This document shows positions 36,853 through 63,900 of a stretch of DNA of 64,000 nucleotides, piece by piece. How positions within the stretch are numbered: the first letter of the stretch is position 1; every line of letters begins with the position of its first letter. The stretch spans positions 256,001-320,000 of the forward strand of contig CBDIIB010000004.1 of NCBI GenBank assembly GCA_965279525.1. The letters are read 5' to 3'. The stretch is from Tagaea sp. (GTDB taxonomy: Bacteria > Pseudomonadota > Alphaproteobacteria > CACIAM-22H2). Below the pieces are notes generated by a model. It was not told the DNA's origin. It did no database searches and worked only from the letters and a program-made list of their open reading frames with translations. The translations under genes and the position numbers were made by a program.

Positions 36853-37020
36853 CACATGCTCCGAAAGACATCCGTCGTGCAGGTGGAGAAAGGCTGGTAC
36901 GTGGCGATCGTTATCGTGGCGAGAAGGCGCGGGATTGGCGTCAGGCCACGTTCCGGAACCGTAGTCCATATTCGTTGTCGTGGAGGCCGCATTACGCGTC
37001 CTCCCGCAATGGAGGGTACG

Positions 37021-38175
37021 ATGTCTAACGAAAAACTCAAAAATCCCAATGGCTTGCCGAAGGGCGATGCCGGGAAGGAATCTCAGGCTGCGGCATTCCC
37101 GGCGCCTGTTTTCGCGGGTGCGGACGTCTCTATCCGGAACCTGATCGCCCGGGCGAATGAAGTCGCAAATCGCCTGAAACGGAAAGACGAACCCGCTAAC
37201 GCCTGTAGTGCCGCGACGTTGCAGGCGTACAAAAAGATCGCCATCGCCGTGGCAAAGGGCGGGTTCGGCGCATTCGAAAAGTTCGCGGCAAAGTCGACCT
37301 ATAACAAGGCGTGCGCCGCGATACGCGCCTATGGTCCTGGCCTTCTGAGCAATCTTGCAGATACCGCGCTCAAGCGCCTGAACTCGAAGCAGCCGGTTCC
37401 GAAGGAATTCATCGGGGCGATGGAGAACCTCGTCGATATCCTGAACGCGGTCAACGGGTACGCCTTCGGTGAAGATCGTACGCTGCTCACGGCACGTGAA
37501 CTGAAGCCGCGCAAGTCGAAGCTGAAGGTTCTGCGGGAGCTTCCCGTTGACTGGGCACATCTGGTCCTCGATTACGCGCAAACGATGATGCCGAAGAACG
37601 TGGTGCTTCATCTCACGATCGCCATGGCGATGAACTCCGGTGCGAGGCCGGCAGAATTGGCAAGGGGCATCCTGATCAGCCGATATGGCGTGGAACTCAA
37701 GCTGACGATCGCTGGCGGAGTGAAGGCCCGAGCCGCAGGCGATCGCGGACTTGGCGAGAGGTGGATCAGGTTCAGCGTGGATACTCCATCGCGCAAGCTG
37801 CTCGATGCCGCTCTCGGCGACAAGGACAAGGTGATGCTGCAAGGTATGAAAGCCTTGGACTTCTGCCATGCGATGATCCGCATCGGGCGGCAGTTGTTCC
37901 CGGAACTGAAAGAGACTGTCTCGCCCTATGCGTTCCGCCACCGGTTTGCTTCCGAGATGAAGGCGGCTGGTGCCTCTTGGGCCGATATCGCTACGGCGCT
38001 GGGTCACAGCACCGACAAGTGCAGCAAGACCTATGGCAGGGCTCGCGGCAAGACGGACGGCTCGATGAACCCAACGGCCGTCGGTGCGGCGAAAGAACCC
38101 GCGGCGAAGCGCAAACCTGCAGGACCGACGCAGTCGATGGGTATTTCCATGGACGGCCCAGGCATGGGGGACTGA
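37021..38175 (+). CDS. Atypical tyrosine-recombinase-family protein
   Basis: GGAGGG RBS; SGARPAEL, GVK, SPYAFRH, ALGH, KTYG. Confidence 0.82.
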   Translation: MSNEKLKNPNGLPKGDAGKESQAAAFPAPVFAGADVSIRNLIARANEVANRLKRKDEPANACSAATLQAYKKIAIAVAKGGFGAFEKFAAKSTYNKACAAIRAYGPGLLSNLADTALKRLNSKQPVPKEFIGAMENLVDILNAVNGYAFGEDRTLLTARELKPRKSKLKVLRELPVDWAHLVLDYAQTMMPKNVVLHLTIAMAMNSGARPAELARGILISRYGVELKLTIAGGVKARAAGDRGLGERWIRFSVDTPSRKLLDAALGDKDKVMLQGMKALDFCHAMIRIGRQLFPELKETVSPYAFRHRFASEMKAAGASWADIATALGHSTDKCSKTYGRARGKTDGSMNPTAVGAAKEPAAKRKPAGPTQSMGISMDGPGMGD

Positions 38176-38419
38176 CGCCAGCATCACCATCGATTGTTTC
38201 CTTTCGAACCGGCCAGCCGCTACAGCAACGGCTGGCCGCATTCGTCTAGGACCATCGAGAAGTACGGCTACCGCGTGCGAGTTCAGCGTGCCTTGCGCTC
38301 TGCGACGAGACAATCAGGACAATTCTCCAATTGCGGAGCGACCAGCGCTCCGCATAAATCGTCGGTCATCGTCGATGCTCGCGCTTGGCGAATTTCAATG
38401 ATGACGAATGGAGCCCCGA

Positions 38420-39160
38420 ATGACACTTCGCCTTGGAGTGAACGTCGACCACGTCGCGACGATTCGAAATGCCCGTGGCGGCATCCATCCCGATCCCGTC
38501 GCGGCTGCCCGGATGGCAGTTGCTGCTGGCGCTGATGGAATCACGGCCCATCTGCGTGAAGATCGACGGCATATCCGCGACGACGACATGCGGCGGATCA
38601 AGGCCGAGATACATGCACCACTGAACTTCGAGATGGCTACAACGGACGAGATGCTCACCATCGCGCTTGCCATCAAGCCGCACGCTTGCTGCCTGGTGCC
38701 AGAGAAGCGCACTGAAGTGACCACCGAAGGCGGCCTGAATGTTGCCGACAACGTCGATGAACTTCGACCGTTCATCCGCAAGCTGTCTGATGCCGGCATC
38801 CGGGTATCCCTGTTTATCGATCCGGATCCTCTTCAGGTCGACGCGGCGAAAGCTGTTGGCGCACATATCGTGGAACTGCACACGGGATCCTACGCCCATG
38901 AGACTGGAGCCGGCCGGTCAAGCGAACTCCGGCGCCTGGTCAAATCGGCTGCCTGTGCTGCGGACCTCGGCATCGAATGCCATGCGGGGCACGGCCTCGA
39001 TTTCGACAACGTTGCCGATGTCGCCGCGATACCGCAGCTCGTCGAGCTCAATATCGGCCACTTCCTTGTCGGCGAGGCGGTTTTCGGCGGTCTTCCAGGT
39101 GCCGTCCGCACAATGCGACGCTTGATGGATCTGGCGCGACGTCTCGACAGCCAGCAATGA
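38420..39160 (+). CDS. pdxJ: Pyridoxine 5'-phosphate synthase
   Basis: [48 protein letters not shown]. Confidence 0.96.
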
Positions 39161-49097: not shown

Positions 49098-49501
49098 TTT
49101 ACGGCCTTTAGAAGAAGTTTGTTATCGAGCGTGCCCGTCTCGCCTTGAATCTTCGCCGCTAGCGACAGTTGCCAACCGCCGACCATCGTCAGGGCGGTTC
49201 TGAACCGATAGATGCCAGGTTCGTTGGACGGCAACGCTTCGATCGGCGAGTTCATGGTAGGCATGCCGTCTGGCGCCATGTCGATGCGAGTCGCGAAAAT
49301 GACCGCACCTGGCACGGCTTTTCCGGTTCGCTTGTCGATCAGCCGGACCGCTACCTCGGCGTTGCTGCCTTGCTTGATGGTTGTCTGAATCAGGCGAAAC
49401 TCGTAGTCGCCGATTTCGGCACTTGCCGGCACAACTGAAACGACCGACAGGGCGCATGCGAGCGCCGCCGCAGTGGCGCGGTTGGAGAAGAGCGTTGACA
49501 T
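49094..49501 (-). CDS. FixH/YtkA-like periplasmic protein
   Basis: Signal peptide, RIDMAPDGM..M, PGIYRF, M.GGWQLSLAAK. Confidence 0.78.
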   Translation of the reverse strand: MSTLFSNRATAAALACALSVVSVVPASAEIGDYEFRLIQTTIKQGSNAEVAVRLIDKRTGKAVPGAVIFATRIDMAPDGMPTMNSPIEALPSNEPGIYRFRTALTMVGGWQLSLAAKIQGETGTLDNKLLLKAVK

Positions 49502-49638
49502 GATTTTGCGATCCCAGGTTCGAGGCACATCGGTTCGCCGAACAAAAAGTTCGACGGCGCGCGGCATAGGTCCACGCACTCTCGATCACCGGTTGGCTTG
49601 CCGGTAATCCCGGCCGACGCGCAAGCGCCGGCGATGCC

Positions 49639-49986
49639 CTAGGTTCGCGGAGGTCGCGCCGGCGGCTTCATGCCGATTGGTCTGTCCAGAAAATCGCTGC
49701 TTGGCTTGTCGAGACTTCGGGCCATCAGAAATTCGAAGCTCGCCGGAGATTTGAACGGCAATCCGGAAACAAAATTTGGCGTGCAGGCCACCAATAGCTG
49801 GCAAGCCTTTTCGCAATCCGGGGTAACAGGCTGCCCATTTGGGCAACAGGGCATGCCATCCGACATCTCGCCCATGATGGTGGACGGCGCTGTCACAAGG
49901 CTCGTCGCTTCGTTAAATGGGCCGAACACGATAGCGAGGGTTGCAATTGCGACAACCAACCAGCGATGCGCTGCCGAGCATTTCAT
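49639..49986 (-). CDS. Cys-rich DUF2946/CopL-like small protein with Pro-rich C-terminus
   Basis: N-terminal hydrophobic segment, MPCCP...DCEKAC...AC, terminal PPARPPRT. Confidence 0.7.
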   Translation of the reverse strand: MKCSAAHRWLVVAIATLAIVFGPFNEATSLVTAPSTIMGEMSDGMPCCPNGQPVTPDCEKACQLLVACTPNFVSGLPFKSPASFEFLMARSLDKPSSDFLDRPIGMKPPARPPRT

Positions 49987-50042
49987 CTCGGTACTATCTC
50001 ACAGCAGGCAGCATTGGAGAAGTTCTCTATACGTCTGTCGCT

Positions 50043-50058
50043 GGTACAATTCGTTACG
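50043..50058 (+). promoter_or_regulatory. Putative OmpR-family tandem site, copy 1
   Basis: GGTACAATTCGTTACG; near-identical copies at 60878 (reverse) and 63475. Confidence 0.6.
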
Positions 50059-50166
50059 TTACGAAATCAGCCTGATACACGAGGGGTATATCGTCAGATG
50101 ACGTCACCAAGGCAATTCGAAGGCTCAGCGCAGCATCACGCGAAAATCTAGATGGGAAGAAATCCG

Positions 50167-50286
50167 ATGGGCCACAATGAGATGTCTATGCCTGGTGATA
50201 TGGTGCTGATGTGGATTTTCGGGCTGCTAGTCCTCGTGGTTCTTGTGCTTGCAGCACTAGCTCTCATTAAATACCTGCGCACCTGA
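50167..50286 (+). CDS. 39-aa Met-rich single-TM peptide (below ORF-track cutoff)
   Basis: MGHNEMSMPGDMVLMWIFGLLVLVVLVLAALALIKYLRT; purine-rich GGGAAGA upstream; alternative ATG at 50152. Confidence 0.7.
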   Translation: MGHNEMSMPGDMVLMWIFGLLVLVVLVLAALALIKYLRT

Positions 50287-50328
50287 TCGCGTTCTGGCCG
50301 TCGGGTCCACGGGGAATGAATTAGCCCC

Positions 50329-50359
50329 TTGACCTTCCCACGAGGGAAGGGTGCACGAA
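50329..50359 (+). promoter_or_regulatory. CueR-type promoter of copA
   Basis: TTGACC -35 overlapping dyad CCTTCCC-ACGA-GGGAAGG (one base tighter than ACCTTCC-N7-GGAAGGT). Confidence 0.75.
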
Positions 50360-50381
50360 GTCTCCCAGAAGGGAGAATTCC

Positions 50382-52862
50382 ATGACTGCGGCTATCGCTA
50401 CCAAGTTGCCTGAGGCCGAACTCGCTCTGACCGTTCCGATCGAAGGCATGACCTGCGCATCTTGCGTTTCGCACGTCGAGAATGCACTTGCGGCCACGCC
50501 TGGCATCAGATCTGTCTCCGTCAATCTCGCGAGTGAAAAGGCAAGTATGTCACTCGCCGACTCCGGCGCAATCGCGGAAATTCCGGGTGCTGTCGAAAAG
50601 GCCGGCTATGCAATTCCGATGATCGGAGTTGAGTATTCGGTATCCGGAATGACATGCGCATCGTGCGTTAGTCACGTTGAAAAGGCTATCAGGGCAGTAC
50701 CAGGCGTGGCAGATGTCGCAGTCAATCTGGCGACCGAGCGGGCGACGGCGAAACTTTATGCAGGTCTGGTACCGGTCGGCGCCATCGAGCGAGCCGTTGA
50801 AAAGGCTGGCTATGACGCCAAGATCTTGACGGACTCGGTTGGCCAGAAGCAAACGACGGACGCAAAGTCCGAAGAGATCGGTCGCCTGCGGCAGTCGCTT
50901 CTCTTCGCGGCAGCACTGACATTTCCGATCTTTGCAATCGAAATGGGTGGACATGCGATCCCGGAGGTTCACTCGTGGGTCGAGCTTGCTGTCGGGCACA
51001 AGTACCTCAAGTATGTCTTCTTCGTGCTGGCGACACTCGTGATGTTCGGACCCGGCATCCGCTTTCATCGGATAGGTCTGCCGAAACTGCTGCGGGGCGT
51101 GCCGGACATGAACTCGCTGGTCTCTGTTGGGACGCTCAGTGCCTATGGCTACTCTCTAGTCTCGACCTTTGCGGCCAGTATTCTGCCGGCTGGAACAGCT
51201 CATCTCTATTACGAAGCCGCGACTGTCATCGTGACGCTGATCCTGCTGGGTCGCTGGCTGGAGGCGATCAGCCGCGGTCGAACCAGTCAGGCGATCAAGC
51301 GGCTGGTCGGGCTGCAGGCAAAGACCGCACGCGTATTGCGCCAGGGGGCTGTTATCGAGATCCCGCTTGAGCAGGTCAAGCTGGGAGATCGCATTCAGGT
51401 CAAGCCAGGAGACCGAATCCCTGTCGATGGCACGCTCGTTGATGGCGAGTCTTATGTCGACGAGTCGATGATCTCAGGCGAGTCCGTGCCTGTATTTAAG
51501 GCGACGGGTGCCAGCGTGGTTGGCGGAACGATCAACACGACCGGCAGCTTCGTGTTCGAGGCAACGCGGATTGGAGCCGACACACTGCTCGCCCAGATCA
51601 TCAAGATGGTCGAGAGCGCACAGGGTGCAAAGCTTCCGATCCAGGCACTGGTCGACAAGGTGACGGCATGGTTCGTCCCGGCCGTGTTTGCAGCGGCAGG
51701 GCTGACCTTCGCTGTCTGGTGGATATGGGGACCCGATCCCGCGCTGACGTTCGGACTCGTCAACGCGGTTGCCGTCCTGATCATCGCGTGTCCGTGTGCA
51801 ATGGGCCTCGCCACGCCGACCTCAATCATGGTGGGAACGGGCAGGGCAGCGGAGCTCGGCGTGCTGTTCCGCCGCGGCGATGCGCTGCAGGCACTTCGGG
51901 ACGTAAAGACTGTCGCCTTCGACAAGACAGGCACGTTGACCAAAGGGAAGCCAGAGCTGACGGACATGGTCCTGGCGGGAGGCTTCACGCGTTTGGACGT
52001 GCTTGCGCGAATCGCCTCGGTCGAAGTTTTGTCCGAGCATCCAGTTGCCGCAGCGATCGTTGCCGCAGCCAGAGCCGAGGGTCTGGTGCCAAGCGCTGTC
52101 GATGGGTTCAATGCGGTGCCGGGCTTCGGGGTTGGCGGATTCGTTGACGGCAAGCGAATCGATGTCGGTGCAGACCGGCATATGATCAAGCTTGGCGTCG
52201 ATATCGCCGGGTTTGAAAATGCTGTCGTGGTACTTGCCGCGGCAGGCAAGACGCCACTTTATGCTGCAATCGACGGCAAGGCGGCAGCCCTCATTGCAGT
52301 CGCAGACCCTATACGTCCGACAACTGCTGCTGCCATTGCCGCCATGCATCGGCTCGGTCTCAAGATCGCGATGATCACTGGAGACAACAAGGTCACGGCA
52401 CAGGCTGTTGCTCGGCAACTTGGCATCGATACAGTGGTGGCCGAGGTCCTTCCGGCGGGCAAGCTTGAAGAAATTCGGAAACTGCGCGCGTCGGACGGCG
52501 CTATCGCTTTCGTCGGAGATGGCATCAACGATGCTCCGGCGCTCGCCGAGGCCGACATCGGCATCGCGGTCGGGACGGGAACGGATGTGGCGATCGAAAG
52601 TGCGGAAGTCGTTCTCGTCTCGGGCGATCTGACGATTGTCACAACAGCGCTGGCGATCTCGCGCGCAACGATGCGCAACATCGAGCAGAACCTGTTCTGG
52701 GCCTTTGCCTACAACGCAGCACTCGTGCCCGTTGCCGCCGGCGTTCTCTACCCATTCACCGGCACCCTCCTGTCGCCCATGCTGGCAGCGGGTGCGATGG
52801 CGATGTCGAGTGTCTTTGTGCTTTCGAACGCGCTACGCCTGCGCCGATTCACGCCGGCGTAG
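50382..52862 (+). CDS. copA: Copper-exporting P1B-1 ATPase
   Basis: Two GMTCASC domains, CPCAMG, DKTGT, SEHP, GDGIND, YN, MAMSS. Confidence 0.95.
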
Positions 52863-52884
52863 CGAAGATTGAAGGGAGGCGATC

Positions 52885-53424
52885 ATGAATATCGGCGAAA
52901 TCGCGGTGGCCGCTGGCGTATCGGCGAAGATGATTCGCTACTACGAGTCGATCGACCTGATCAAGGCACCTGTCCGAACCGAAGGTGGCTATCGGGTATA
53001 TATGCCGGACGATGTTCATACGCTCCGTTTCATCGGGCGGGCACGTGACCTTGGCTTTTCGATTGAGGAAATATCGAGCTTGCTCGCTCTTTGGCACGAT
53101 CGCAGTAGGGCGAGTTCCGACGTCAAACGGATTGCCGTTGAGAAGTTGGCGACGCTGGAGGCGAAGATCCTGGAGCTTAACGCGATGGCAGCAACGCTCA
53201 GGCATCTTGCAGAAAACTGTCACGGCGACCATCGGCCCGATTGCCCCATCCTGAGTGATCTCGCGGAGCCAAAGGTTGCTTCGACGCCCGGGGGCCGTGC
53301 CGGCAATCTTGCAAACCTCAAAGGGTTCGGGGGACGCCGGACCGCAAAAGCCGATTGCGGTCATGAGGCCTGCCGGGACACCGCGCCCAAAAAGCGGGCA
53401 TCCGTATCCGGAAAATTTCGTTGA
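52885..53424 (+). CDS. cueR: Cu(I)-responsive MerR regulator with C-terminal extension
   Basis: MNIGE..GVSAKMIRYYE, RASSDVK, CHGDHRPDCPIL. Confidence 0.93.
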   Translation: MNIGEIAVAAGVSAKMIRYYESIDLIKAPVRTEGGYRVYMPDDVHTLRFIGRARDLGFSIEEISSLLALWHDRSRASSDVKRIAVEKLATLEAKILELNAMAATLRHLAENCHGDHRPDCPILSDLAEPKVASTPGGRAGNLANLKGFGGRRTAKADCGHEACRDTAPKKRASVSGKFR

Positions 53425-53451
53425 CCTTCCAACGTTGGCAACTTGCATCGT
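53421..53451 (+). promoter_or_regulatory. CueR-type promoter of copZ
   Basis: TTGACC -35, ACCTTCC-AACGTTG-GCAAC dyad variant, 19-nt spacer to CATCGT. Confidence 0.7.
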
Positions 53452-53507
53452 GATTGCCTTGCTCGAACCTGCGTGAGCGAGGTCTGAACCTCCCAAGGAG
53501 AAGTCGT

Positions 53508-53708
53508 ATGGCTACGGTACTGAAAGTCGAAAAGATGCACTGCCAGAGCTGCGCCAAGCGCGTGACCAACGCCATCATGGGCGTGGCGCCCCATTCGAAG
53601 ATCGACATCGACATCGAGGGCCGGCGCGTCACGATCGACGGCGTCGGCAATCTCGCGGAGGTCACCAAGGCTCTCGAGGACGCAGGCTACCCGGCCCAGA
53701 ACGCCTGA
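53508..53708 (+). CDS. copZ: Copper chaperone (HMA domain)
   Basis: AAGGAG RBS; MHCQSC, AGY. Confidence 0.9.
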   Translation: MATVLKVEKMHCQSCAKRVTNAIMGVAPHSKIDIDIEGRRVTIDGVGNLAEVTKALEDAGYPAQNA

Positions 53709-53780
53709 GCGCGAGCGGACGGAACAGGGACCGTCCGCTGGGCCTTACCGTCAAACAAACTCATTCAAGAGAGGGTAAGC

Positions 53781-54815
53781 ATGTCCGGAAGCCTCAAGAT
53801 TCTGACTATCTCCGCCGCCTTCGCATTGGCGTCGCCGGTCGCGGCTCTCGCCGCGCAGGGCGACACCGTGAACGCGATAAAAGCGCGCGGCGAACTTAAC
53901 TGCGGTGTATCAACCGGTGTTTCGACGGGCATGTCGACGCTGGACAACGCCGGAAACTGGCGGGGAATGGAAGTCGAGTTCTGCCGCGGAGTCGCCGCAG
54001 CAATTCTCGGCGATCCGGCAAAGGTGAAATTCGTACCTCTCGAGTTCCGTGCGGCCTTCACCACGCTTCAGTCGGGTGCGGCCGATCTTCTGGCTCGAAC
54101 GGCAACTTGGAGCTACTCGCGGGACTCCTCGCTCAATCTCGACTGGGCGGGCGTCTACATGTACGACGGCCAGGGGTTCATGGTCGCCAAGAAGCTTGGG
54201 GCCAAGAGCGGAAAAGACCTCAACGGCGCGTCGGTTTGCGTGTCCGCCGGCACGACGTCGGAGCTCAACCTTGCGGATTATTACCGGGCGAACCGAATGA
54301 CCTACACGGCCATTACGGGTGCGACACGCGAACAGAACCAGCAGAATCTCGAATCGGGACGCTGCGACGTCTATTCGAACGAGCGTGGCGGGCTTGCCGC
54401 AAGCCGGACAGCGATGAAGAACCCCGACGACTGGGAGATACTCCCTGACGTCTTCTCGAAGGAACCGCTGGGACCGACAGTCCGGCAGGACGATCCCCGC
54501 TTCAAGGACATCGTTTCCTGGGTGCTCAACGTGATCATTACGGCCGAAGAGTTCGGCATCACGCAGGCCAATGTCGTCGAGATGAGCCAGAATTCCACCA
54601 ATCCTGAAGTTCAGCGTTTGCTTGGCAAGACGGGCGAGTTTGGCAAGATGCTTGATCTGCCGCAGGATTGGGCGGTCAAGGTGATCCGGACAACCGGCAA
54701 CTATGGCGAGCTCTACGAGCGTAACCTTGGTAGTGGCAGTCCGATCAAACTGGCACGCGGATTGAACAGCCTTTGGAGCAATGGCGGCCTTCTCTACAGC
54801 CCGCCTTTCCGCTGA
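53781..54815 (+). CDS. aapJ: General L-amino acid ABC transporter substrate-binding protein (AapJ/BztA-like)
   Basis: IKARGELNCGV, YDGQGFMV, GTTSELNLADY, SKEPLGP, GNYGE, RGLNSLW..GGL.Y.PPFR. Confidence 0.88.
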   Translation: MSGSLKILTISAAFALASPVAALAAQGDTVNAIKARGELNCGVSTGVSTGMSTLDNAGNWRGMEVEFCRGVAAAILGDPAKVKFVPLEFRAAFTTLQSGAADLLARTATWSYSRDSSLNLDWAGVYMYDGQGFMVAKKLGAKSGKDLNGASVCVSAGTTSELNLADYYRANRMTYTAITGATREQNQQNLESGRCDVYSNERGGLAASRTAMKNPDDWEILPDVFSKEPLGPTVRQDDPRFKDIVSWVLNVIITAEEFGITQANVVEMSQNSTNPEVQRLLGKTGEFGKMLDLPQDWAVKVIRTTGNYGELYERNLGSGSPIKLARGLNSLWSNGGLLYSPPFR

Positions 54816-54826
54816 TCGCCGGTGCG

Positions 54827-54856
54827 GCCATGCGGGATAGCGATGTCCCGCATGGC
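54827..54856 (+). other. Intercistronic stem-loop after the binding-protein gene
   Basis: GCCATGCGGGATA-GCGA-TGTCCCGCATGGC with no U tract. Confidence 0.55.
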
Positions 54857-54876
54857 GTTCCCGGTAATTGATCACG

Positions 54877-56085
54877 ATGCATGACGCTCGAACCCAGGGA
54901 CTTGTGGATCTGACCGCAGACACGGCATCAATGGCCCGCGCGCCGACGACCCGCCAGTTTCGGCGTTTCGCCTATCAAGCCATGTTCGTTCTCGTCGCCG
55001 GCGTTCTCGGCTGGGTCGCTTGGGAGAATGTCCAGGCCAATATGGCAGTAAGGAACCTCAGCCTCGGCTTTGGATTTCTCAGTCAGGAAGCCGGCTTCGG
55101 CGTCCCATTCAGTATTCTCCCCTACAACGAGACCGACAGCTACGGCTGGGTCTTTGTTGTCGGCGTTGCAAACACGATGCTTGTCGCCCTTCTCGGAATC
55201 GTCGCGGCGACGGTTCTCGGGTTTACGATCGGTATCGCGCGGCTTTCCCCGAACTGGGCGGTCACGAATGCCGCCCTCGTCTATATCGAAGCAGTCCGGA
55301 ACCTCCCGCTGCTGCTGCATGTCCTGATCTGGTACAATGTGGTCATCCGCGGTCTTCCGCCGGCCCGGCAGGCGATTTCGGTCGGCGATGTCGCATTCCT
55401 GAGTAACCGCGGCATTTTCCTGCCCTGGCTGACGACCGGTCTCGGGGCATGGACACTCTGCGGAATCGGGATTGTTGCCATCATCGGCCTTGGCTTCATT
55501 TTGAGCCGTAGTCGACGCCGTCGGGAGGCGACCGGAGAGGCGCTTCCGACTGTCCGCCTCGCCGCACTCTGGATCGTTGCGGTTGTCGCCGGCGTCTTTC
55601 TCACCACGCATGCGACGATCCATTTCGAGGTGCCGGCACTGCGGGGCTTCAACTTCGCCGGAGGTATTGCCCTGTCGCCGGAGCTTGCCGCTCTGGTGAT
55701 CGCGCTTGCGATCTATAACGCATCATTCATAGCGGAGCTGGTACGCGGCGCCATCGAAGCGGTCGATCGGGGTCAACGCGAGGCTGCGCTGTCGCTCGGA
55801 CTCGATCGGATGAAGACACTTCGCCTCGTCGTCATCCCACAGGCTGTCCGGCTGCTCGTCCCGCCATTGACCAACCAGTATCTTCATCTGCTCAAGGCAT
55901 CGTCGCTTGCGACGGTCATCGGATATCCAGATATCGTGAACATCTTCGTCGGTACGACCTTAAACCAGACCGGGCGTGCGATCGAGATCATGGGGCTGAC
56001 GATGGCTGTATTCCTCGTTCTCAGCCTTGGCATCACGGGACTCAGCAACCTCTTTAACCGCCATATGCGGATCGTCGGGCGATGA
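54877..56085 (+). CDS. aapQ: Amino acid ABC transporter permease (AapQ-like)
   Basis: GFGFL...AGF, ARLSPNW, GFNFAGG, GQREAA.SLG, IGYPD; start uncertain. Confidence 0.86.
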   Translation: MHDARTQGLVDLTADTASMARAPTTRQFRRFAYQAMFVLVAGVLGWVAWENVQANMAVRNLSLGFGFLSQEAGFGVPFSILPYNETDSYGWVFVVGVANTMLVALLGIVAATVLGFTIGIARLSPNWAVTNAALVYIEAVRNLPLLLHVLIWYNVVIRGLPPARQAISVGDVAFLSNRGIFLPWLTTGLGAWTLCGIGIVAIIGLGFILSRSRRRREATGEALPTVRLAALWIVAVVAGVFLTTHATIHFEVPALRGFNFAGGIALSPELAALVIALAIYNASFIAELVRGAIEAVDRGQREAALSLGLDRMKTLRLVVIPQAVRLLVPPLTNQYLHLLKASSLATVIGYPDIVNIFVGTTLNQTGRAIEIMGLTMAVFLVLSLGITGLSNLFNRHMRIVGR

Positions 56086-57128
56086 CAAACGCCGTCGCCT
56101 GGGCCCGACGAAACCTCTTCGCGCGACCTGTCGATGTCGTGCTGACGGCCGTCGTTGCGGCAGCGATTCTCGGAATCGCATACGCGATACTCGATTGGGC
56201 CGTCTTATCGGCAACTTGGTCGGGGAACAGCCGCGCCGACTGCAGTCCGGAAGGGGCCTGTTGGGCCTTCGTCGTGGCCCGTGCTGGACAGTTCACCTAC
56301 GGATTCTACCCGCCGGATGAGCGATGGCGGGTCGATGTCGCCTTCTTGCTATTGGCGGTCGGCATCGCCGTGCTTGTCGTACCCCGTCTGCCGGGCAAGC
56401 GGTTGGCCGGCATTCTCCTGCTCACGGCATTTCCAGTACTTGCGGTCCTCTTGCTGAAGGGCGGAGCTTTCGGCCTGTCGAACGTGCCGACGGATCGGTG
56501 GGGCGGACTGTTCCTCACCTTGGTGCTCGGTGTTGCCGGTATCGTGCTTTCCTTTCCTATGGCGATCTTTCTGGCGCTTGGCCGGCATTCGGATCTGCTG
56601 GCGATCCGGATCGCCTGTACCTTCTACATCGAGATTTGCCGCGGCTTGCCTCTGATTGCTGTCCTTTTCATGGCGCGGATCCTGCTGCCCTATGCACTGC
56701 CGGTGGGCTCGGAACTGGATCCGCTTGGTCTGGCAGTAACCGGAATCGTCATGTTCGAAGCGGCGTATCTCGCCGAAGTGTTCCGTGGCGGCTTGCAGTC
56801 GCTGCCGAGGGGTCAGTATGAAGCCGCCGCGGCTATCGGGTTCGGCTACTGGCGGACGACGCTCTACGTCATCTTGCCGCAAGTCATGCGCAACGTAGTT
56901 CCTGGGTTGGTCAACAACTCGATCGCGCTTCTCAAGAATACGACGCTCGTCGTCGCTCTCGGACTGTTCGAAATCCTGAACATTGTCGCGGCCGGGGCGT
57001 CGGATCCCCAATGGCTTGGCTTGGCGGCCGAAGGCTATTTCGTGGCCGGCCTCGTATTCTGGAGCCTTTGTTTCGCGATGTCGCGCTACAGCCGCGGCGT
57101 CGAGCGAAGCCTATTGCGGGGACGGTAG
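56082..57128 (+). CDS. aapM: Amino acid ABC transporter permease (AapM-like)
   Basis: [44 protein letters not shown]. Confidence 0.86.
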
Positions 57129-57129
57129 A

Positions 57130-57879
57130 ATGCAGGAGCCCGCCTCCGAGCCGATGATCGACATCCGCCGCCTCAACAAATGGTATGGGGCGTTACACGT
57201 CTTGCGGGACATCGATCTGAAAATCTCTGCGGGCGAACGGGTCGTCGTTTGCGGACCGTCCGGATCGGGGAAGTCGACACTCGTGCGCTGCATCAACGCG
57301 CTCGAGCGCTATCAGGGTGGACGAATCCTGATCGCCGGTCGCGAAACAAACCCCGATTGCGATAGCGTGCTGTCGCTCCGGCGGGATGTCGGCATGGTGT
57401 TCCAGTCGTTCAATCTGTTCCCGCACCTCACGGTGCTGCGGAATCTCACGCTCGGCCCAGAGAAACTTCTGGGGTTGGGTCGGGTCGAAGCGGAAGCTGC
57501 CGCCATGGCATTGCTCGAGAAAGTCAAGTTGACCGACCAATGCAGGAAGTATCCAGCCGAACTCTCCGGTGGACAGCAGCAGCGTGTGGCAATTGCCCGC
57601 GCGCTTGCGATGCGGCCCGGCGTGATGCTGTTCGACGAGCCGACATCCGCACTCGACCCGGAAATGGTCAAGGAAGTTCTCGACGTCATGATTGATCTTG
57701 CCGGAAGCGGGCTGACGATGGTGTGCGTGACCCATGAGATGGGTTTCGCAAAGGCTGTTGCCGACCGAGTGGTGTTCATGGCGGAAGGAACCATTCAGGA
57801 AGTCACGACGCCGGAGCGGTTCTTCTGCGGCGATTGCTGTGAGCGCGCCCGCCGATTCGTCGAACAGGTGCTCCACTGA
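57130..57879 (+). CDS. aapP: Amino acid ABC transporter ATP-binding protein (AapP-like)
   Basis: [37 protein letters not shown]. Confidence 0.92.
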
Positions 57880-59066
57880 TGGAGAAGAAGCGTTCCGAAC
57901 GCGACGGCATCGACACGATCGCGACCCATGCCGGACGGGATCCGCCCGCTCAGGCCGGGGCCGTCAACCCGCCGATCTTTCATGCATCGACGATACTCTA
58001 CGAGACGATGGATGCGTACGATCGCCGTCGCGACCTGTTTTTCGATGGAGTGGGATATGGCCTCTACAATACTCCGTCGACTATAGCGCTGGCGCGCGCA
58101 GTTGCAGCGCTCGAGAATGCCGAGCACTGCGTCATCGTAAGCTCCGGGACCGCAGCCATCGCGACGGCGCTTTCGGCGTTCGTAGGGCACGGGGCTCATG
58201 TGTTGATCCCGGATAATGTCTACGGCGCGACGCGCACGTTCTGCGACGAAGTTCTCGGGCGCTTCGGCGTCTCCACGACCAGCTATGACCCCGAGATCGG
58301 TGCCGGAATATCAGATCTGATTCGGGAAGAAACAACGATTGTCTTTCTCGAATCGCCCGGATCGCTGACATTCGAGGTACAGGATGTGCCAGCCATCGCC
58401 CGTGCCGCCCGCGCCAAGGGTGCCGTCAGCGTGCTCGACGGAACTTGGGCATCGCCGGTTTTCATGCAAGCTCTGGATCTCGGCGTCGACATCGCGCTGC
58501 AATCGGGGACCAAGTATCTATCGGGACATTCAGATGTGATGTTTGGAACACTTTCGACACGGAACGAGGGAGTGTTCCGGCGTCTCAAGGAGACGGCTGG
58601 GCGCTTCGGAAATCGACTGGGCGGCGAGGACTGTTATCTCGCCCTACGAGGCCTGCGCACCCTGCCTGTCCGGATGAAGGCCCATCAAGCCGCCGGCCTT
58701 GAACTCGCGCGTCGGGTGGCGGGGCACCCGGCGGTTCGCCGTGTCTTGCATCCCGGTCTCGAGGGTGCTGCCGGCCACCAGTTTTGGAAGCGCGACTTCT
58801 CGGGAGCATCAGGGCTGTTCGGCGCTGTTTTGCAAACGAAGGATCGTGCCCGCGTCGCGATCGCCCTCGAGTCGAGCCGACTGTTCAAGATGGGTTCGAG
58901 CTGGGGCGGCTTTGAAAGCCTGATCGTTCCAGCTTATCCTGCCATGCAGCGCAAGACGACGCGCTGGGATACCGAGGGGTTTGTCGTACGGATTCACGCA
59001 GGCCTCGAGACGATCGAGGACCTATGGTCAGATCTGGATGATGTTCTGGGCAGGACCATGGGATAG
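57879..59066 (+). CDS. metC: Cystathionine beta-lyase
   Basis: VNPPIFHAST, FLESPGSLTFEVQD, GTKYLSGHSD, RGLRT, SWGGFESL, RIHAGLE. Confidence 0.88.
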   Translation: MEKKRSERDGIDTIATHAGRDPPAQAGAVNPPIFHASTILYETMDAYDRRRDLFFDGVGYGLYNTPSTIALARAVAALENAEHCVIVSSGTAAIATALSAFVGHGAHVLIPDNVYGATRTFCDEVLGRFGVSTTSYDPEIGAGISDLIREETTIVFLESPGSLTFEVQDVPAIARAARAKGAVSVLDGTWASPVFMQALDLGVDIALQSGTKYLSGHSDVMFGTLSTRNEGVFRRLKETAGRFGNRLGGEDCYLALRGLRTLPVRMKAHQAAGLELARRVAGHPAVRRVLHPGLEGAAGHQFWKRDFSGASGLFGAVLQTKDRARVAIALESSRLFKMGSSWGGFESLIVPAYPAMQRKTTRWDTEGFVVRIHAGLETIEDLWSDLDDVLGRTMG

Positions 59067-59103
59067 ACGGCTCGCTCACGAGCAGGAGTTAGAACAAATT
59101 GCC

Positions 59104-60162
59104 ATGACGTCCGACTCTTCAAGCGAGACAGATTTCGTCTCCGGACTGCCGCTCGCACTGACGATGGGCGAGCCCGGCGGCGTCGGGCCGGAACTGGCGC
59201 TCGATGCTTGGCTACGCTTGAAAGAGTCCGGCCCAACATTCGTCCTTTTCGCAGATCCGGATCTGACGGCGACGGTCGCCCGATATCTCGGGCGTGACGT
59301 CCCGGTTGCCGTAGTCGGAAGCGCGGCGGAAGCCGCAAGTCAATTTCGGAGGGTATTGCCGGTCATCCCGGTCAAGCTGGCCAAGCCCGTTGAACCCGGA
59401 AGGCCGGATCCAGCCAATGCATCTGCGGTCATCCAATCAATCGAACTTGCGGTCGTCGCGGCAAGGCGCGGCGAGGTCGGGGCTGTCGTTACGAATCCGA
59501 TTCAGAAGGCCGCCCTTTACGCGGCTGGCTTCCGGTACCCCGGACATACAGAATTCCTTGGCGAGATCGCCGGTACCGGGATTGTTCCGGTGATGATGCT
59601 TGCGGGTCCGGATCTTCGGGTCGTGCCAGTGACGATCCATGTATCGCTTCGCGATGCGCTTGCCGCTTTGAATACGGATGCCATTGTCGAAACGGCGCAG
59701 ACCGTCGCCAGTGCGCTAAGGCGGGACTTCGGGATCGATGCTCCCCGGATCGCGGTCGCCGGCGTGAACCCGCATGCCGGCGAAGGCGGTGCCATGGGCG
59801 ACGACGACATCCGGATTGTCGCTCCGGCTGTTGAGCGGCTCCGGAAAGCAGGCGTTTCGGTCGCTGGGCCGATGTCGCCGGACACGATGTTCACGGCACG
59901 CGCACGGCAGACATATGACGTTGCGATCTGCATGTACCACGATCAGGCGCTAATCCCGATCAAGACGCTCGATGTCGACGGCGGCGTCAACGTCACGCTC
60001 GGCCTTTCCATCGTGCGAACCTCGCCGGATCATGGAACGGCACTGGATATCGCCGGCAAGGGTCTTGCCGATGTCGGCAGCCTTGTCGCGGCAATCCGGA
60101 TGGCGGATATGATCATGCGCAATAGATCGAAGGAACGGCAAGTTACCCAGGTTCGGCGTTAA
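59104..60162 (+). CDS. pdxA: 4-hydroxythreonine-4-phosphate dehydrogenase
   Basis: TMGEPGGVGPE, TNPIQK, PGHTEFL, NPHAGE, MYHDQAL, RTSPDHGTA. Confidence 0.95.
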   Translation: MTSDSSSETDFVSGLPLALTMGEPGGVGPELALDAWLRLKESGPTFVLFADPDLTATVARYLGRDVPVAVVGSAAEAASQFRRVLPVIPVKLAKPVEPGRPDPANASAVIQSIELAVVAARRGEVGAVVTNPIQKAALYAAGFRYPGHTEFLGEIAGTGIVPVMMLAGPDLRVVPVTIHVSLRDALAALNTDAIVETAQTVASALRRDFGIDAPRIAVAGVNPHAGEGGAMGDDDIRIVAPAVERLRKAGVSVAGPMSPDTMFTARARQTYDVAICMYHDQALIPIKTLDVDGGVNVTLGLSIVRTSPDHGTALDIAGKGLADVGSLVAAIRMADMIMRNRSKERQVTQVRR

Positions 60163-60835
60163 ATTTGAACACGTCACCACGATCCGCAACGCACGTGGCG
60201 GAACCCATCCGGATCCGGTTTCCGCCGCAAGCTCGTTCTGGCAGCCGGGGCCGATGGGATCACGGCGAATCTTCGCGAAGATCGCCGCCATATCCGCGAC
60301 GACGAAACGCGCTGCCTGCATTACAAGATGGCGGCGACAGCCGAGATGGCATAGATCGCGCTGGAACTCCGGCCGCATGCCTGCCGCATTGTGCCTGAGC
60401 GGCGCGGCGAGATCACGACGGAGGGCGGACTCGACGTTGCCGACAATGAGGAGGCTCCGACCGGATACATCGACAGGCTCGCGGATGCTGGCATCCGGGT
60501 TTCCTTGTTTATCGACCCGACCGGCGCCAACTCGATGGCGCGAAGCGGGTCGCCGCACCCTTCGTGGAGCTTCACACCGGCGCCTATGCGCATTCAAGGG
60601 GACAAGTGGCGATGCACGGGCTACAGCGTGTGGCGACTGCGGCTTTGCATGCATCCGATATCGGCCTCGAGTGCCATGCTGGCCACGGACTCGATTTTGA
60701 CAATGTCGGCCGCGTCGCCGCAATCCCGCAGCTTGTCGAACTCGACATCGGCTATTTTGGTGTCGGCGAAGGCATATTCGGCGTACTGACCGGCACGGTC
60801 AGGACGATGCGCCCTCTGATGGACCGATCCCGGTC
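60143..60835 (+). pseudogene. pdxJ: Degraded pdxJ
   Basis: Fragments [53 protein letters not shown] spread over several frames, with an internal TAG and deletions. Confidence 0.88.
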
Positions 60836-60877
60836 TGCCGGAACGCGATCGGCCGGCAACGCCGCTCGGCGACCGCT

Positions 60878-60893
60878 CGTAACGAATTGTATC
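60878..60893 (-). promoter_or_regulatory. Putative OmpR-family tandem site, copy 2
   Basis: Minus strand GATACAATTCGTTACG upstream of the response regulator. Confidence 0.6.
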
Positions 60894-60954
60894 CAGTATA
60901 GGGATTTTGGCGACACCCAGCTAATCTTCAACAAGTCAAACTACGCCGAGAATC

Positions 60955-61665
60955 ATGACCGGCTCCAGCCATATCCTGGTCGTTGACGACGACACCGAGA
61001 TACGCGAACTGCTCAAGCGGTTCCTGTCGAAGAACGGGTTCCGCGTCAGCGTCGTCGCCGACGGCCCCCGTATGCGTGCCGTCTTGGCGGAGACGAAGGT
61101 AGATATCGTGGTCCTCGACGTGATGCTGCCGGGTGAGGACGGTCTGTCGCTCTGTCGGCGGATCCGGTCCGAGTCCGGCATTCCGATCATCATGCTCACG
61201 GCGATGGGCGATGATACCGATCGAATTGTCGGACTTGAGATGGGTGCGGACGATTATCTTGCCAAGCCGTTCAATCCGAGGGAATTGCTTGCCCGCATCA
61301 AGGCGATCCTGCGACGTAGCGGCCAAAGCGCTGTTCCGGGCGGCCTCAGCCGTCTGGAGTTCGAGGGCTGGAAGCTGGATCTTGCCAAACGCGAATTGAC
61401 GGCACCAGACGGACGTCTTGTCGACCTGACGGGCGGCGAGTTCGATCTGCTCGTCGCTTTTGTCGAGCATCCGCAGCGCACGTTGTCGCGCGACCAGCTT
61501 CTCGACCTGACACGTGGCAGGGCAAGCTCGCCGTTCGACCGCAGCATCGACATTCAGGTCAGTCGGCTGCGACAGAAAATCGAGGAGGACGCCAAAGAGC
61601 CGAAGCTGATCAAGACAGTCCGCAGTGTCGGATACATATTCTCGGCTCGGGTGGGTGTGCCTTGA
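60955..61665 (+). CDS. OmpR-family response regulator
   Basis: ILVVDDD, LDVMLPGEDG, GADDYLAKPF, DRSIDIQVSRLR, TVRSVGY. Confidence 0.95.
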   Translation: MTGSSHILVVDDDTEIRELLKRFLSKNGFRVSVVADGPRMRAVLAETKVDIVVLDVMLPGEDGLSLCRRIRSESGIPIIMLTAMGDDTDRIVGLEMGADDYLAKPFNPRELLARIKAILRRSGQSAVPGGLSRLEFEGWKLDLAKRELTAPDGRLVDLTGGEFDLLVAFVEHPQRTLSRDQLLDLTRGRASSPFDRSIDIQVSRLRQKIEEDAKEPKLIKTVRSVGYIFSARVGVP

Positions 61666-63011
61666 AAGTCGCGCGGCCTCGACTGCTTTCCAGTCTCGTC
61701 GCGCGTGCGATTGCGGTGCTGATTCTGGCCGTCTTCGTCTCGCACGGCCTGAGCATGGGACTCTATCACGTCGAGCTCACGGACCGATTGGCAGCGAGCC
61801 AAGAAACCCAGCTCGGCGAGAAACTTGCGGCGATCAAAGACCTTGTCGAATCGGCGCCTGAAAGCGCTCGCGAGACGATCGTCCATGCGATCGGTGGCTC
61901 GTCAATCGAGGCCCATTGGGATCGGCAAAGCGCCATCGCTGCTGTCGATAGTGGGGATTCCCGCTTTCGGGAGGCAGCCGCGCGTCTGGTCGAGCGGATT
62001 CCGGGCGCGCGACTGGATGATCTGCGACTGTCACACGGTTCGGACACCGGCTCAGCGTTCGAGCCGAATTTCCTGTTGGTTTCACTGCGTATCTCGGACG
62101 GCACCTGGGTCAATGCCAGTGTCAGTAAAAGTCATGTACCTGAAGGCGGACTGACAAGTGCCATCGTCTCGACGGTTCTGATGGCTCTCGCTGTCGTTCC
62201 GCTCGCCGTATGGCTGTTGCGGATCGCCATCCGTCCGCTGCGCGTTTTCTCCAAGGCTGCCGAGCGCCTGGGAAACGATATGAATGCGCCACCACTGCCC
62301 GAGCGAGGACCCGCCGAGGTCGTGCAGACGGCGCGCGCATTCAACGAGATGCAGCGGCGGATCCGCAAACTGCTCGGCGACCGGACGGCCATGTTGGCGG
62401 CCGTATCCCACGATCTCAGAACACCGATCACGCGGCTGCGCCTGCGCGCGGAACTTCTCGACGATACCGAGCAGCAACAGAAGATCGTCTCGGATATCGT
62501 CGAGATGGAGGAGATGGTCAACTCGACGCTTTCGTTCTTCCGCGACGATGCGATCGCTGAAGTCCGGCGGCCTTTAGATCTCAGCTCACTTGTTCGGACG
62601 ATTGTCGACGATTCGACGGATCTTGGCCACGACGCCAAACTCGAGCGCTGTGATCCTTGTGTCGTCAACGGCCGCCCGATCGCGCTCAAGCGCGCCCTCG
62701 TCAATCTGGTCGAGAATGCAGTCAAGTACGGCGATCGTGCGAGGATACGGCTTGTCGGTGAAGGGCATGATGCGATTCTGACGATCGAGGACGACGGTCC
62801 AGGTATCCCGGAGGCCCGCAAGGACGACGTGTTCGAGCCTTTTGTCCGCCTCGAAACCTCGCGCAGCAGGCAAACAGGCGGTGTCGGTCTCGGGCTCGCG
62901 CTCGTCCGTTCGGTGATCCGTGCACACGATGGGTCGGTCGGGATCGAGAACGTGCCGGATCAAGGGCTACGTGTCATCGTGACGCTACCAAAACTCCCGA
63001 CAAGCCCATGA
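61662..63011 (+). CDS. HAMP sensor histidine kinase (EnvZ-like)
   Basis: Two TMs, SHDLRTPI, NAVKY, DDGPGI, GVGLGL. Confidence 0.93.
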   Translation: MKVARPRLLSSLVARAIAVLILAVFVSHGLSMGLYHVELTDRLAASQETQLGEKLAAIKDLVESAPESARETIVHAIGGSSIEAHWDRQSAIAAVDSGDSRFREAAARLVERIPGARLDDLRLSHGSDTGSAFEPNFLLVSLRISDGTWVNASVSKSHVPEGGLTSAIVSTVLMALAVVPLAVWLLRIAIRPLRVFSKAAERLGNDMNAPPLPERGPAEVVQTARAFNEMQRRIRKLLGDRTAMLAAVSHDLRTPITRLRLRAELLDDTEQQQKIVSDIVEMEEMVNSTLSFFRDDAIAEVRRPLDLSSLVRTIVDDSTDLGHDAKLERCDPCVVNGRPIALKRALVNLVENAVKYGDRARIRLVGEGHDAILTIEDDGPGIPEARKDDVFEPFVRLETSRSRQTGGVGLGLALVRSVIRAHDGSVGIENVPDQGLRVIVTLPKLPTSP

Positions 63012-63466
63012 TTCAGAAATCGAGTGTCGCTGTAACTTCGGTTGTTGCAGCGATCGTCGGCGCTGGTGCCGTCATCTGGTTCGTGAACCGGTCGGCGGTG
63101 CCTGACGAATATCCTGCCGTGATCGCGACAGGTGCCAGGATCTATGCCGAATCATGTGCGGCCTGCCACGGCGCGCGTCTCGAAGGGCAGCCAGACTGGC
63201 GCAGCCGCAATGCCGCGGGCCGACTGCCTGCGCCTCCGCACGATGCTTCGGGCCATACATGGCATCATCCAATGAAAGTCCTGTTCGAAATAACGAAGTA
63301 CGGAGTCGGACGTTTCGCGGGCCCAGGTTACGTGTCCGACATGCCGGCATTCGAGGGGCGACTGTCGGATGACGAGATCCGCGCTGTCCTTGGATACATC
63401 CGTGCCCAGTGGCCCGAGGAGATCCGCAAGGTTCACGCTGAGATCGATCGAAAAAGTGGGTCGTAG
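63008..63466 (+). CDS. Monoheme cytochrome c
   Basis: CAACHG, PAPPHDASGHTWHH, SDMPAF. Confidence 0.9.
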   Translation: MIQKSSVAVTSVVAAIVGAGAVIWFVNRSAVPDEYPAVIATGARIYAESCAACHGARLEGQPDWRSRNAAGRLPAPPHDASGHTWHHPMKVLFEITKYGVGRFAGPGYVSDMPAFEGRLSDDEIRAVLGYIRAQWPEEIRKVHAEIDRKSGS

Positions 63467-63474
63467 GCGTCGTC

Positions 63475-63490
63475 GATACACTTCGTTACA
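63475..63490 (+). promoter_or_regulatory. Putative OmpR-family tandem site, copy 3
   Basis: GATACACTTCGTTACA upstream of the 63571 operon. Confidence 0.6.
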
Positions 63491-63570
63491 AAATCGGCTG
63501 ATGCACGAAACACCCCCGTTACAGCCAACAGTCAAACAAGGTCCAGTTCCGAGAGTAAGAAGGGATAGCC

Positions 63571-63900
63571 GTGTTTCATACCGGACCTGCATCCAAACCA
63601 ACCGATTTCTGCACCAGAGTGCTTGTAGTCGGGCTTGCCGTCGCTGCTTTTGCCGGCATGTCGGCAGTCGCGACAGCCCAGACACAGGTCCCGGAAGCTC
63701 CGCGGGTGGCTCCGAGCATGCTGGCCCCACTTGTGGAGCGGCCTGCCGCCAGTACAACGCGTAACGGGTCAGTCTTCGTGGCGCCACCGGCGATCGAAAA
63801 CGGAACGGAGACCGACTGGCGGAGTGCCAATGACGAAGCGGCACGTCTCGGTGGGCATATCGGTCAGCTTCGTGGCCGCCCGGCACAACCCCGTCCTTGA
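63571..63900 (+). CDS. Exported hypothetical protein of copper clusters
   Basis: Signal-like segment; DWRSANDEAARLGGH motif; start uncertain. Confidence 0.65.
   Translation: MFHTGPASKPTDFCTRVLVVGLAVAAFAGMSAVATAQTQVPEAPRVAPSMLAPLVERPAASTTRNGSVFVAPPAIENGTETDWRSANDEAARLGGHIGQLRGRPAQPRP

Follow-up and report, generated by a model that had tools for sequence, protein, structure and literature searches.

Introduction

In alphaproteobacteria, copA, cueR and copZ are known to stand together in operons. Here we describe a gene string of this kind from Tagaea sp., lying in a stretch of 64,000 nucleotides (nt) of contig CBDIIB010000004.1 (assembly GCA_965279525.1, positions 256,001 to 320,000; hereafter the window, with its first letter as position 1), in which copZ is followed by aapJQMP, metC, pdxA and a decayed pdxJ. 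The string resembles the CueR regulon, as seen at E. coli copA and cueO, in its TTGACC element, its 19-nt spacer with a dyad like CCTTCC-N7-GGAAGG, its neighbouring cueR gene, and the presence of a chaperone and an ATPase among the targets. It differs from that regulon in the degenerate right arm of the copZ box and in its cargo of an ATP-binding cassette (ABC) importer, a carbon-sulfur (C-S) lyase and vitamin B6 genes, which we did not find described as CueR targets. A literature search for amino-acid ABC transporters linked to CueR or copZ gave nothing relevant, and the original prediction made from this DNA, that no copper-resistance module of this composition had been described, agrees with our finding none in print.

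A copZ-led operon with cargo of another sort is on record in Bordetella pertussis, where copZ, prxgrx and gorB are reported to be co-transcribed under CueR control and to have been assembled into an operon in an environmental ancestor (PMC7794356). The two operons are alike in being led by copZ, in being of CueR type and in joining the chaperone to metabolic defence genes that do not encode transport; but the B. pertussis cargo consists of peroxide/glutathione redox enzymes, whereas here, as known from sequence alone, it is an importer with genes for pyridoxal 5′-phosphate (PLP)-dependent and PLP-synthesis enzymes. The importer shares with AapJQMP, BztABCD and YhdWXYZ a family 3 binding protein, two permeases, a single ATPase and metC as a frequent neighbour; it differs from them in forming a separate clade, in which residues invariant in the generic proteins are replaced, and in being linked to copZ rather than to nitrogen control. 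Likewise, the B6 genes resemble the pdxA-pdxJ operon of the 1-deoxy-D-xylulose 5-phosphate-dependent pathway, with a PdxA above its NCBIfam cut-offs and a gene order as in relatives of the genus, but here they lie behind copZ in a copper island, with pdxJ decayed and the usual pdxAJ and pdxJ sites empty.

Published physiology touches on the same pathways. A transposon-sequencing study of Brucella abortus lists pdxJ, pdxA, pdxH, his and pur genes as needed under copper (PMC13001215), and in E. coli an RNA-sequencing study reports that the genes induced by copper include his, arg and met genes, metC among them (PMC13618251).

Results and Discussion

The string has the make-up of a copZ-led composite operon in a mobile copper island, placed behind a MerR/CueR-type promoter. 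Our preferred reading, to which we give a probability of about 0.5, is that CueR drives a copZ-aapJQMP-metC-pdxA operon that would combine a specialised importer with thiol release and PLP supply.

All genes of the string are on the forward strand. The copZ gene (53508-53708) encodes a 66-amino-acid (aa) HMA metallochaperone with the motif MHCQSC (Pfam HMA 44.8 bits, cut-off 24.8), whose scores fall under the cut-offs of the NCBIfam CopZ models. Behind it lie aapJ (53781-54815), whose SBP_bac_3 product, a substrate-binding protein with an altered ligand site, belongs to a distinct clade linked to copZ; the BPD_transp_1 permease genes aapQ (54868-56085) and aapM (56082-57128), a pair with long products of 405 and 348 aa; the ATPase gene aapP (57130-57879; ABC_tran); metC (57879-59066), for a cystathionine beta-lyase (TIGR01324 405.1 bits, cut-off 365.9; expect value (E) 1e-90 against the E. 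coli MetC structure 1CL1); pdxA (59104-60162; TIGR00557 392 bits, cut-off 290; NF003699 472 bits, cut-off 378); and a pdxJ pseudogene (60165-60835), two frames of which score 44 and 53 bits (cut-off 193). From copZ to pdxA the genes follow one another on one strand with short gaps or overlaps, which is the layout of an operon: the copZ-aapJ gap is 72 nt, aapQ and aapM overlap by 4 nt, aapM and aapP are 1 nt apart, aapP and metC have one base in common (TGATG), and 37 nt separate metC from pdxA. The predicted gene list, the 72-nt gap, a 9-bp hairpin without a U tract and the promoter sequence were all found in place.

Upstream of copZ, copA (50382-52862) encodes a Cu(I)-exporting P1B ATPase with two HMA domains (TIGR01511 569.6 bits, cut-off 397), and cueR (52885-53424) a protein of 179 aa (TIGR02044 170.8 bits, cut-off 147.4); the match spans residues 1-126, so that some 50 aa at the C-terminus extend past the model. 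The TGA stop codon of cueR is embedded in the TTGACC -35 element of the copZ promoter (53421-53451, forward strand), which continues with a 19-nt spacer (TTCCAACGTTGGCAACTTG) and the -10 element CATCGT at 53446-51; a sequence check places TTGACCTTCCAACGTTGGCAAC at 53421-53442. This spacing fits the 19-20 nt of MerR-type promoters and is the same in all homologous boxes. Set against the CCTTCC-N7-GGAAGG dyad, the left half-site is perfect and the right one, GGCAAC for GGAAGG, matches at 3/6 positions; the copZ boxes of relatives have GGCAAG, GGCAAT, GGTAAC or GGAAAG in this arm. A canonical CueR-type promoter precedes copA (50329-50359, forward strand: TTGACC, a TTCCCACGAGGGAAGG dyad in the 19-nt spacer, CACGAA), and the -35 and left half-site of the copZ box are identical to it (TTGACCTTCCCACGAGGGAAGG). 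This copA box is conserved in genomes G011, G007, G018 and G009 and in contig L134.

At copZ, conservation covers TTGACC, spacer and -10, whereas the flanking and upstream sequence has diverged (G007, G011, G009, G018, L133-L135), and a CueR-type box stands 5′ of copZ in 12/12 related loci with upstream sequence, a count that leaves aside the truncated L139 and L140. In two other Tagaea genomes, G001 and G015, the box reads ...GGCAATCCG TATCGT, and in the loci that we call type II below ...GGAAAGCTG CAGCCT; in G081 it is near textbook form, ...GGCAAGGTT TAGCCT, also given as TTGACCTTCCGACGGTGGCAAGGTT TAGCCT. The 10-mer TTGACCTTCC by itself is not enriched, with 6 copies in the genome against a rough expectation of about 5. 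The pattern TTGAC[CT]TT[CA]C has 8 matches in the genome, and the 4 with a dyad-like right arm sit just 5′ of the native cueR, of copA, of copZ and of a gene for a Met-rich periplasmic protein. Besides the cueR that adjoins the copZ box, the genome has a second one (132 aa, with its own canonical box) at C3:583705/583790. The CueR-type promoter predicted 5′ of copZ is borne out in its -35, left half-site, 19-nt spacer and conservation, although its right half-site is degenerate. Relatives (L133:2048, L134:3974, L130:9203, L127:1621) have one more CueR-type box, their third, in front of a small His-rich open reading frame (ORF) about 570 nt 5′ of the copA box; it is missing from the window.

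A metagenome scan and genome samples yielded 16 loci with an AapJ of at least 62% identity. The 14 placed in a tree form one clade (99/100 support, stem 0.54), which has a copZ-type gene directly 5′ of aapJ in 12 of these 14, or in 14 of the 16 loci when L143 and G646 are counted. The original prediction had called for a search for copZ-aapJ-metC-pdxA synteny in other copper islands, and the copZ-aapJ part of it does recur: copZ-importer loci are found in at least three gene arrangements and in three alphaproteobacterial families. Type I, copA-cueR-box-copZ-aapJQMP-metC(-pdxA-pdxJ), followed by genes for a response regulator (RR) and a histidine kinase (HK), is that of three Tagaea genomes (the window genome G000, G007 and G011) and of contigs L133-L135; in L134 and L135 the string is complete and its pdxJ intact, with a DNA identity of 74% across the pdxJ region. 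Type II, in G646 (another family) and five contigs, has two divergent boxes between copA, with cueR behind it, and a copZ variant leading aapJQMP, and has no metC. Type III is G081, of a third family, where a box is followed by copZ, aapJQM and a ThrC-like PLP enzyme, with a copZ-aapJ gap of 45 nt; neither copA nor cueR was found near this locus. In type IV (L140) the end of an HMA gene precedes aapJ. Flanking the type II operon of G646 are genes for a glutaredoxin-MauE fusion and for DsbA-like, DsbB and DsbD-like proteins (L186:2273-6343).

The clade is rare and patchy. It was found in 3/21 Tagaea genomes, in 0/29 genomes of other genera of the order, in 1/400 genomes of a class sample, 1/400 of a phylum sample and 2/401 of the order of G646, figures for which at most five candidates were scored per genome, so that some members may be missed. 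The plasmid collection held a single record with a clade member, a Terrarubrum plasmid.

Within AapJ, 13 positions carry a residue common to at least 13 of the 14 clade members and never seen in 12 generic AapJ proteins. At sites that are invariant in the generic type the clade has R92A, A89F, T/S/N88E, T160S, D201E, S203G, G237D and F51M, and it has gained R183; position 92 is Ala in 95 of the 100 nearest database proteins, Val in 2 and the generic Arg in 3. For type II, a Bosea sp. protein with 86% identity points to a culturable carrier. A HMMER alignment to the glutamate-binding protein GluBP (2VHA) equates positions 89, 92, 109 and 114 with S72, R75, T92 and R97. Presumably R75 contacts the side-chain carboxylate and, in the family, Asp at 201 holds the alpha-amino group; R114, the Arg for the backbone carboxylate, is retained in the clade. 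In GluBP-based sensors S72T, T92A and R24K alter glutamate affinity; S72T does so in iGluSnFR. The side-chain pocket seems to have been rebuilt, with a basic residue lost and acidic and aromatic ones gained. Because the ligand site is remodelled, the importer is probably no general amino-acid permease but a specialised Aap/Bzt offshoot, and the earlier labelling of it as an ordinary Aap permease fails on both its separate clade and its replaced ligand-site residues.

This remodelling also bears on a different explanation of a genuine copper link, namely that the importer itself buffers copper, bringing in glutathione, cystine, histidine or a copper-amino-acid complex that would act with cytoplasmic CopZ, while MetC, the ThrC-like enzyme and PdxAJ would be passengers. 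The loss of the generic Arg92 and the gain of Glu88, Phe89, Met51 and Arg183 would suit such a change of cargo, as would the type II loci, which have no PLP enzyme and thiol-disulfide genes next door. Glutathione is reported to buffer copper in S. pyogenes (PMC7733945), and the closest solved structure to AapJ, 4Z9N (E 8e-110), was crystallised with glutathione (PMC6191719). However, little can be learnt about the clade from the ligand of 4Z9N, a generic-type protein that has Arg in place of A92; and the importer has PLP enzymes as neighbours in type I, G081, the Terrarubrum plasmid, L141, L142 and G1166. We regard direct buffering with passenger enzymes as unlikely.

Returning to the reading in which the enzymes belong with the importer, metC is the first partner to consider. 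The window metC is a second copy, 50% identical to the native one. In a MetC search its closest match, L030 (77% identity), carries the same block, and all others are at 55% or less. Across MetC loci, aapJQMP stands beside metC in 40/80, divergently in 36 and co-directionally in 4, from which we take the generic aap-metC adjacency to be old and unrelated to copper. The prediction that aap and metC are neighbours in some alphaproteobacterial chromosomes is correct in that the pairing is widespread, but it has no tie to copper and metC is no constant partner of the importer: it is missing from type II, and in G081 the ThrC-like PLP enzyme stands in its stead. That enzyme (L181:6037-7224) is 52% identical to one on the Terrarubrum plasmid (L189:10150-11376). 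Such ThrC-like enzymes are of PLP fold-type II, have an N-terminal CxxC...CPxC motif and are encoded 3′ of the importer. In G1166, metC-like fragments lie 5′ of the importer. From the Terrarubrum, G081 and G1166 loci it would appear that the importer and PLP-dependent C-S or beta-replacement enzymes form a unit of their own; the placing of this unit behind copZ in copper islands fits recruitment, and the partner enzymes hint that the substrate might be a two-headed amino acid or one that contains sulfur.

The B6 genes give the string a further dimension. The window pdxA is the genome's only true pdxA, a second match being 30% identical, and is on that account no mere stress accessory; the alternative PdxS/PdxT route was sought and set aside, there being no PF01680 match in the genome (97% complete). 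The genome's only intact pdxJ (38408-39160, forward strand; TIGR00559 281 bits, cut-off 193) lies in the same island. By comparison with the intact gene of L134, the pdxJ remnant behind pdxA has lost its ATG, one nt at 60228, 24 nt at 60317 and one nt at 60519, and has a TAG near 60342, so that the decay predicted for it is confirmed by a lost start, two frameshifts, one stop and an 8-codon deletion. In relatives within the genus pdxA-pdxJ or a lone pdxJ is found at three chromosomal sites, which makes the B6 genes appear mobile; in the window genome all three are empty and the cell relies on its island copies. A native origin of pdxA-pdxJ in the string was rejected: the genome has no B6 gene at the G003-type pdxAJ site (C2:152335/152356) or at the G011/G007-type pdxJ site (C5:1038061/1038066), and PdxA groups with the copZ-linked ones.

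The history of these genes can be followed in relatives. In G001 and G015 a box is followed by copZ, pdxA, pdxJ, RR, HK and a cytochrome c gene, and the pdxA and pdxJ of this string are the only matches found in each genome. The PdxA proteins of the window, L134 and L135 are sister to those of G001 and G015 (100/98 support) and stand apart from the native ones, and this tree together with the shorter string suggests that the copZ-pdxAJ link is old. In G011 and G007 pdxAJ is absent from the string and metC abuts the regulator gene, an arrangement that we ascribe to pdxAJ loss. There are two pdxJ copies each in G007 and G011, and no pdxJ match in G012.

Two strong hairpins lie within the predicted operon. 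The first, 3′ of the copZ stop codon (53714-53722/53731-53739, forward strand), has 9 bp and no T run after it; the gap in which it lies folds at -31.1 kcal/mol (z -4.5, 0/200 shuffles as good), and a simple scan gave no terminator-like site there, with 10 such sites seen over 50100-61100 against 9.5 expected. The copZ-aapJ gaps of G011, G007 and L134 also form hairpins, of 9-10 bp but with other stem sequences, a conservation judged from single folds, since the stems of G011 and G007 fall out of register in the alignment. The idea that the hairpin is general to copZ-aapJ gaps was rejected: it is confined to type I, the gaps of type II, G081 and L140 folding like their shuffles. The second, between aapJ and aapQ (54828-54855, forward strand), also has no U tract and is stronger (-39.1 kcal/mol, z -4.8). 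Since it sits within a junction that is obligatory for the importer, hairpins of this U-less kind do not appear to be operon ends here. Such very stable hairpins after a binding-protein gene are typical of operons that overproduce the binding protein, and both are probably intra-operon attenuators or stabilisers. The 87-nt copZ leader has a 10-bp stem-loop of its own (53456-53483, forward strand; -18.7 kcal/mol, z -2.5), with arms conserved and the loop changed in G018 and G009. No Rfam match to a riboswitch or other known RNA was found over 49500-63600 at E up to 1.

Among 23 listed public runs, 20 held the stretch whole or in part, most of them DNA. The metatranscriptome runs X16, X18, X19 and X20 mostly gave fragments of relatives, at less than 90% likeness, which makes their depth figures unusable; X19 and X20 are probably DNA. 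From one RNA-Seq run (X18, record 9), a 761-nt contig aligns to 53419-53806 with 15 differences and has an unlike continuation upstream. It is weakly suggestive: a transcript that starts at the copZ box, or passes through it, and enters aapJ would give such a contig, but so may DNA.

If the copZ hairpin did end the copper transcript, the neighbouring genes might simply be juxtaposed. An aapJQMP-metC-pdxA cassette could have landed by copARZ in a mosaic island without shared control, with its own promoter in copZ or in the gap and under nitrogen, sulfur or LysR-type regulation. The Terrarubrum plasmid, on which the same cassette lies under a LysR-type regulator and without a CueR box, the frequency of generic aap-metC pairs among the 80 MetC loci, the conserved hairpin 3′ of copZ and the need of a sole pdxA for copper-independent expression all speak for such an origin. 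It accounts poorly for copZ standing directly 5′ of the importer in arrangements that otherwise share nothing, and for the recurrence of copZ-pdxAJ with a monophyletic PdxA. Moreover, in types II and III the gaps are 45-85 nt, with no significant structure and little room for a promoter, and cueR is the only regulator gene adjoining the cassette in types I-III. We give mere juxtaposition a low probability.

The preferred reading of a CueR-driven operon can be set out as a mechanism. Cu(I)-loaded CueR, from the island copy at 52885 and perhaps from the native copy too, would untwist the 19-nt-spacer promoter at 53421, and copZ would be transcribed from there and by read-through from the copA promoter. 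Transcripts that pass the U-less hairpin would extend into aapJQMP, metC and pdxA; we propose that, as they would pass it only in part, the chaperone would be overproduced relative to the other products. The later steps are a weaker inference: the importer would take up an amino-acid-like compound, most likely sulfur-containing or two-headed, that MetC- or ThrC-type PLP enzymes can process; MetC would release a thiol from it; and PdxA with PdxJ would sustain the PLP supply under the greater demand that copper places on PLP-dependent metabolism of amino acids and sulfur. In evolution, an older string of copZ-pdxA-pdxJ-RR-HK-cytochrome c probably gained aapJQMP-metC between copZ and pdxA, and pdxAJ may later have been lost in some relatives; we propose that the pdxJ remnant could decay here because the island has a second, intact pdxJ. 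The transporter label of the original prediction is in need of revision, as is its chemistry, in which sulfide, Met supply or B6 as an antioxidant might play a part, and its idea that importer, lyase and B6 genes had entered the copper regulon is partly supported: the promoter and the gene order are conserved across lineages, but metC is inconstant and the importer-MetC unit is also found under LysR.

Several observations weigh against this reading. The right half-site of the copZ box is only 3/6 to consensus and its -10, CATCGT, is weak; the hairpin 3′ of copZ is kept in type I by compensatory change and may stop much of the transcription; and the 761-nt RNA contig extends only 25 nt into aapJ and could be DNA carry-over. 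The type I loci are one inherited island and not independent cases. In L141, L142, G1166 and the Terrarubrum plasmid it is metC and not copZ that stands 5′ of the importer, the plasmid unit being a LysR-type gene divergent from metC-aapJQMP-ThrC-like enzyme with no CueR box, and the generic aap-metC adjacency is common without copper genes. As the only copy in a genome without PdxS, pdxA must also be expressed independently of copper, and no conserved internal promoter for it was found in a promoter scan and by comparison with L134 and G011: the scan matches were no more than chance would give (2 against 3.1), and the candidate at 58912-58940 (TTGAAA-17-TATCCT) was discarded, as it is not kept in either relative. 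Conversely, G007, G011 and G012, all of the same genus (97-98% complete, one a single contig), have no pdxA by TIGR00557, which suggests that pdxA is dispensable in close island-bearing relatives; non-orthologous replacement or B6 auxotrophy may account for its absence there.

The wider setting of the string is a segment of about 49 kb, from window position 30,000 to C4:335,000 in the contig, with a GC content (about 0.60) below that of the sequence before it (about 0.66). The segment holds a tyrosine recombinase, an IS481 transposase, the intact pdxJ, a second copper ATPase, cusAB and the copZ-aap-metC-pdx string, and past the end of the window cusF, a multicopper oxidase, SCO1, PCuAC, a DsbA-like protein, and a further ATPase together with its MerR regulator. 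It is a copper island, with the aap-metC-pdx block in its middle. Directly after the string, family scans identify an OmpR-type response regulator, an EnvZ-like kinase and a cytochrome c (60955-63466, forward strand); in type I loci and in G001 and G015 this block is always directly 3′ of pdxJ, or of metC where pdxAJ is gone. An 835-aa ORF on the reverse strand (35806-38313), adjoining the intact pdxJ, had no NCBIfam match at E 1e-5.

Conclusions

Descriptions of bacterial copper defence centre on efflux, oxidation and chaperoning. Recent screens show that the synthesis of amino acids and of B6 is important under copper, and no dedicated genetic module is known to tie both to copper defence. 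An operon in which a CueR box and copZ are conserved ahead of the importer would fill this role, and would offer a directly testable handle in one promoter, one binding protein and a few deletions. We tentatively suggest, as a possibility somewhat short of even, that it is an unrecognised member of the alphaproteobacterial CueR regulon: a copZ-coupled importer of new specificity, repeatedly joined to PLP-dependent enzymes of sulfur or amino-acid metabolism and, in Tagaea, to the only B6 genes of the cell.

If this is so, some copper islands would carry, beside efflux, a metabolic arm of defence made up of import, thiol release and cofactor supply, and the island would be indispensable in some hosts, as both the sole pdxA and the sole intact pdxJ are carried on it. 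The Tagaea locus would then illustrate a way for housekeeping cofactor genes to be taken up by a mobile island and for the island to become fixed in the host.

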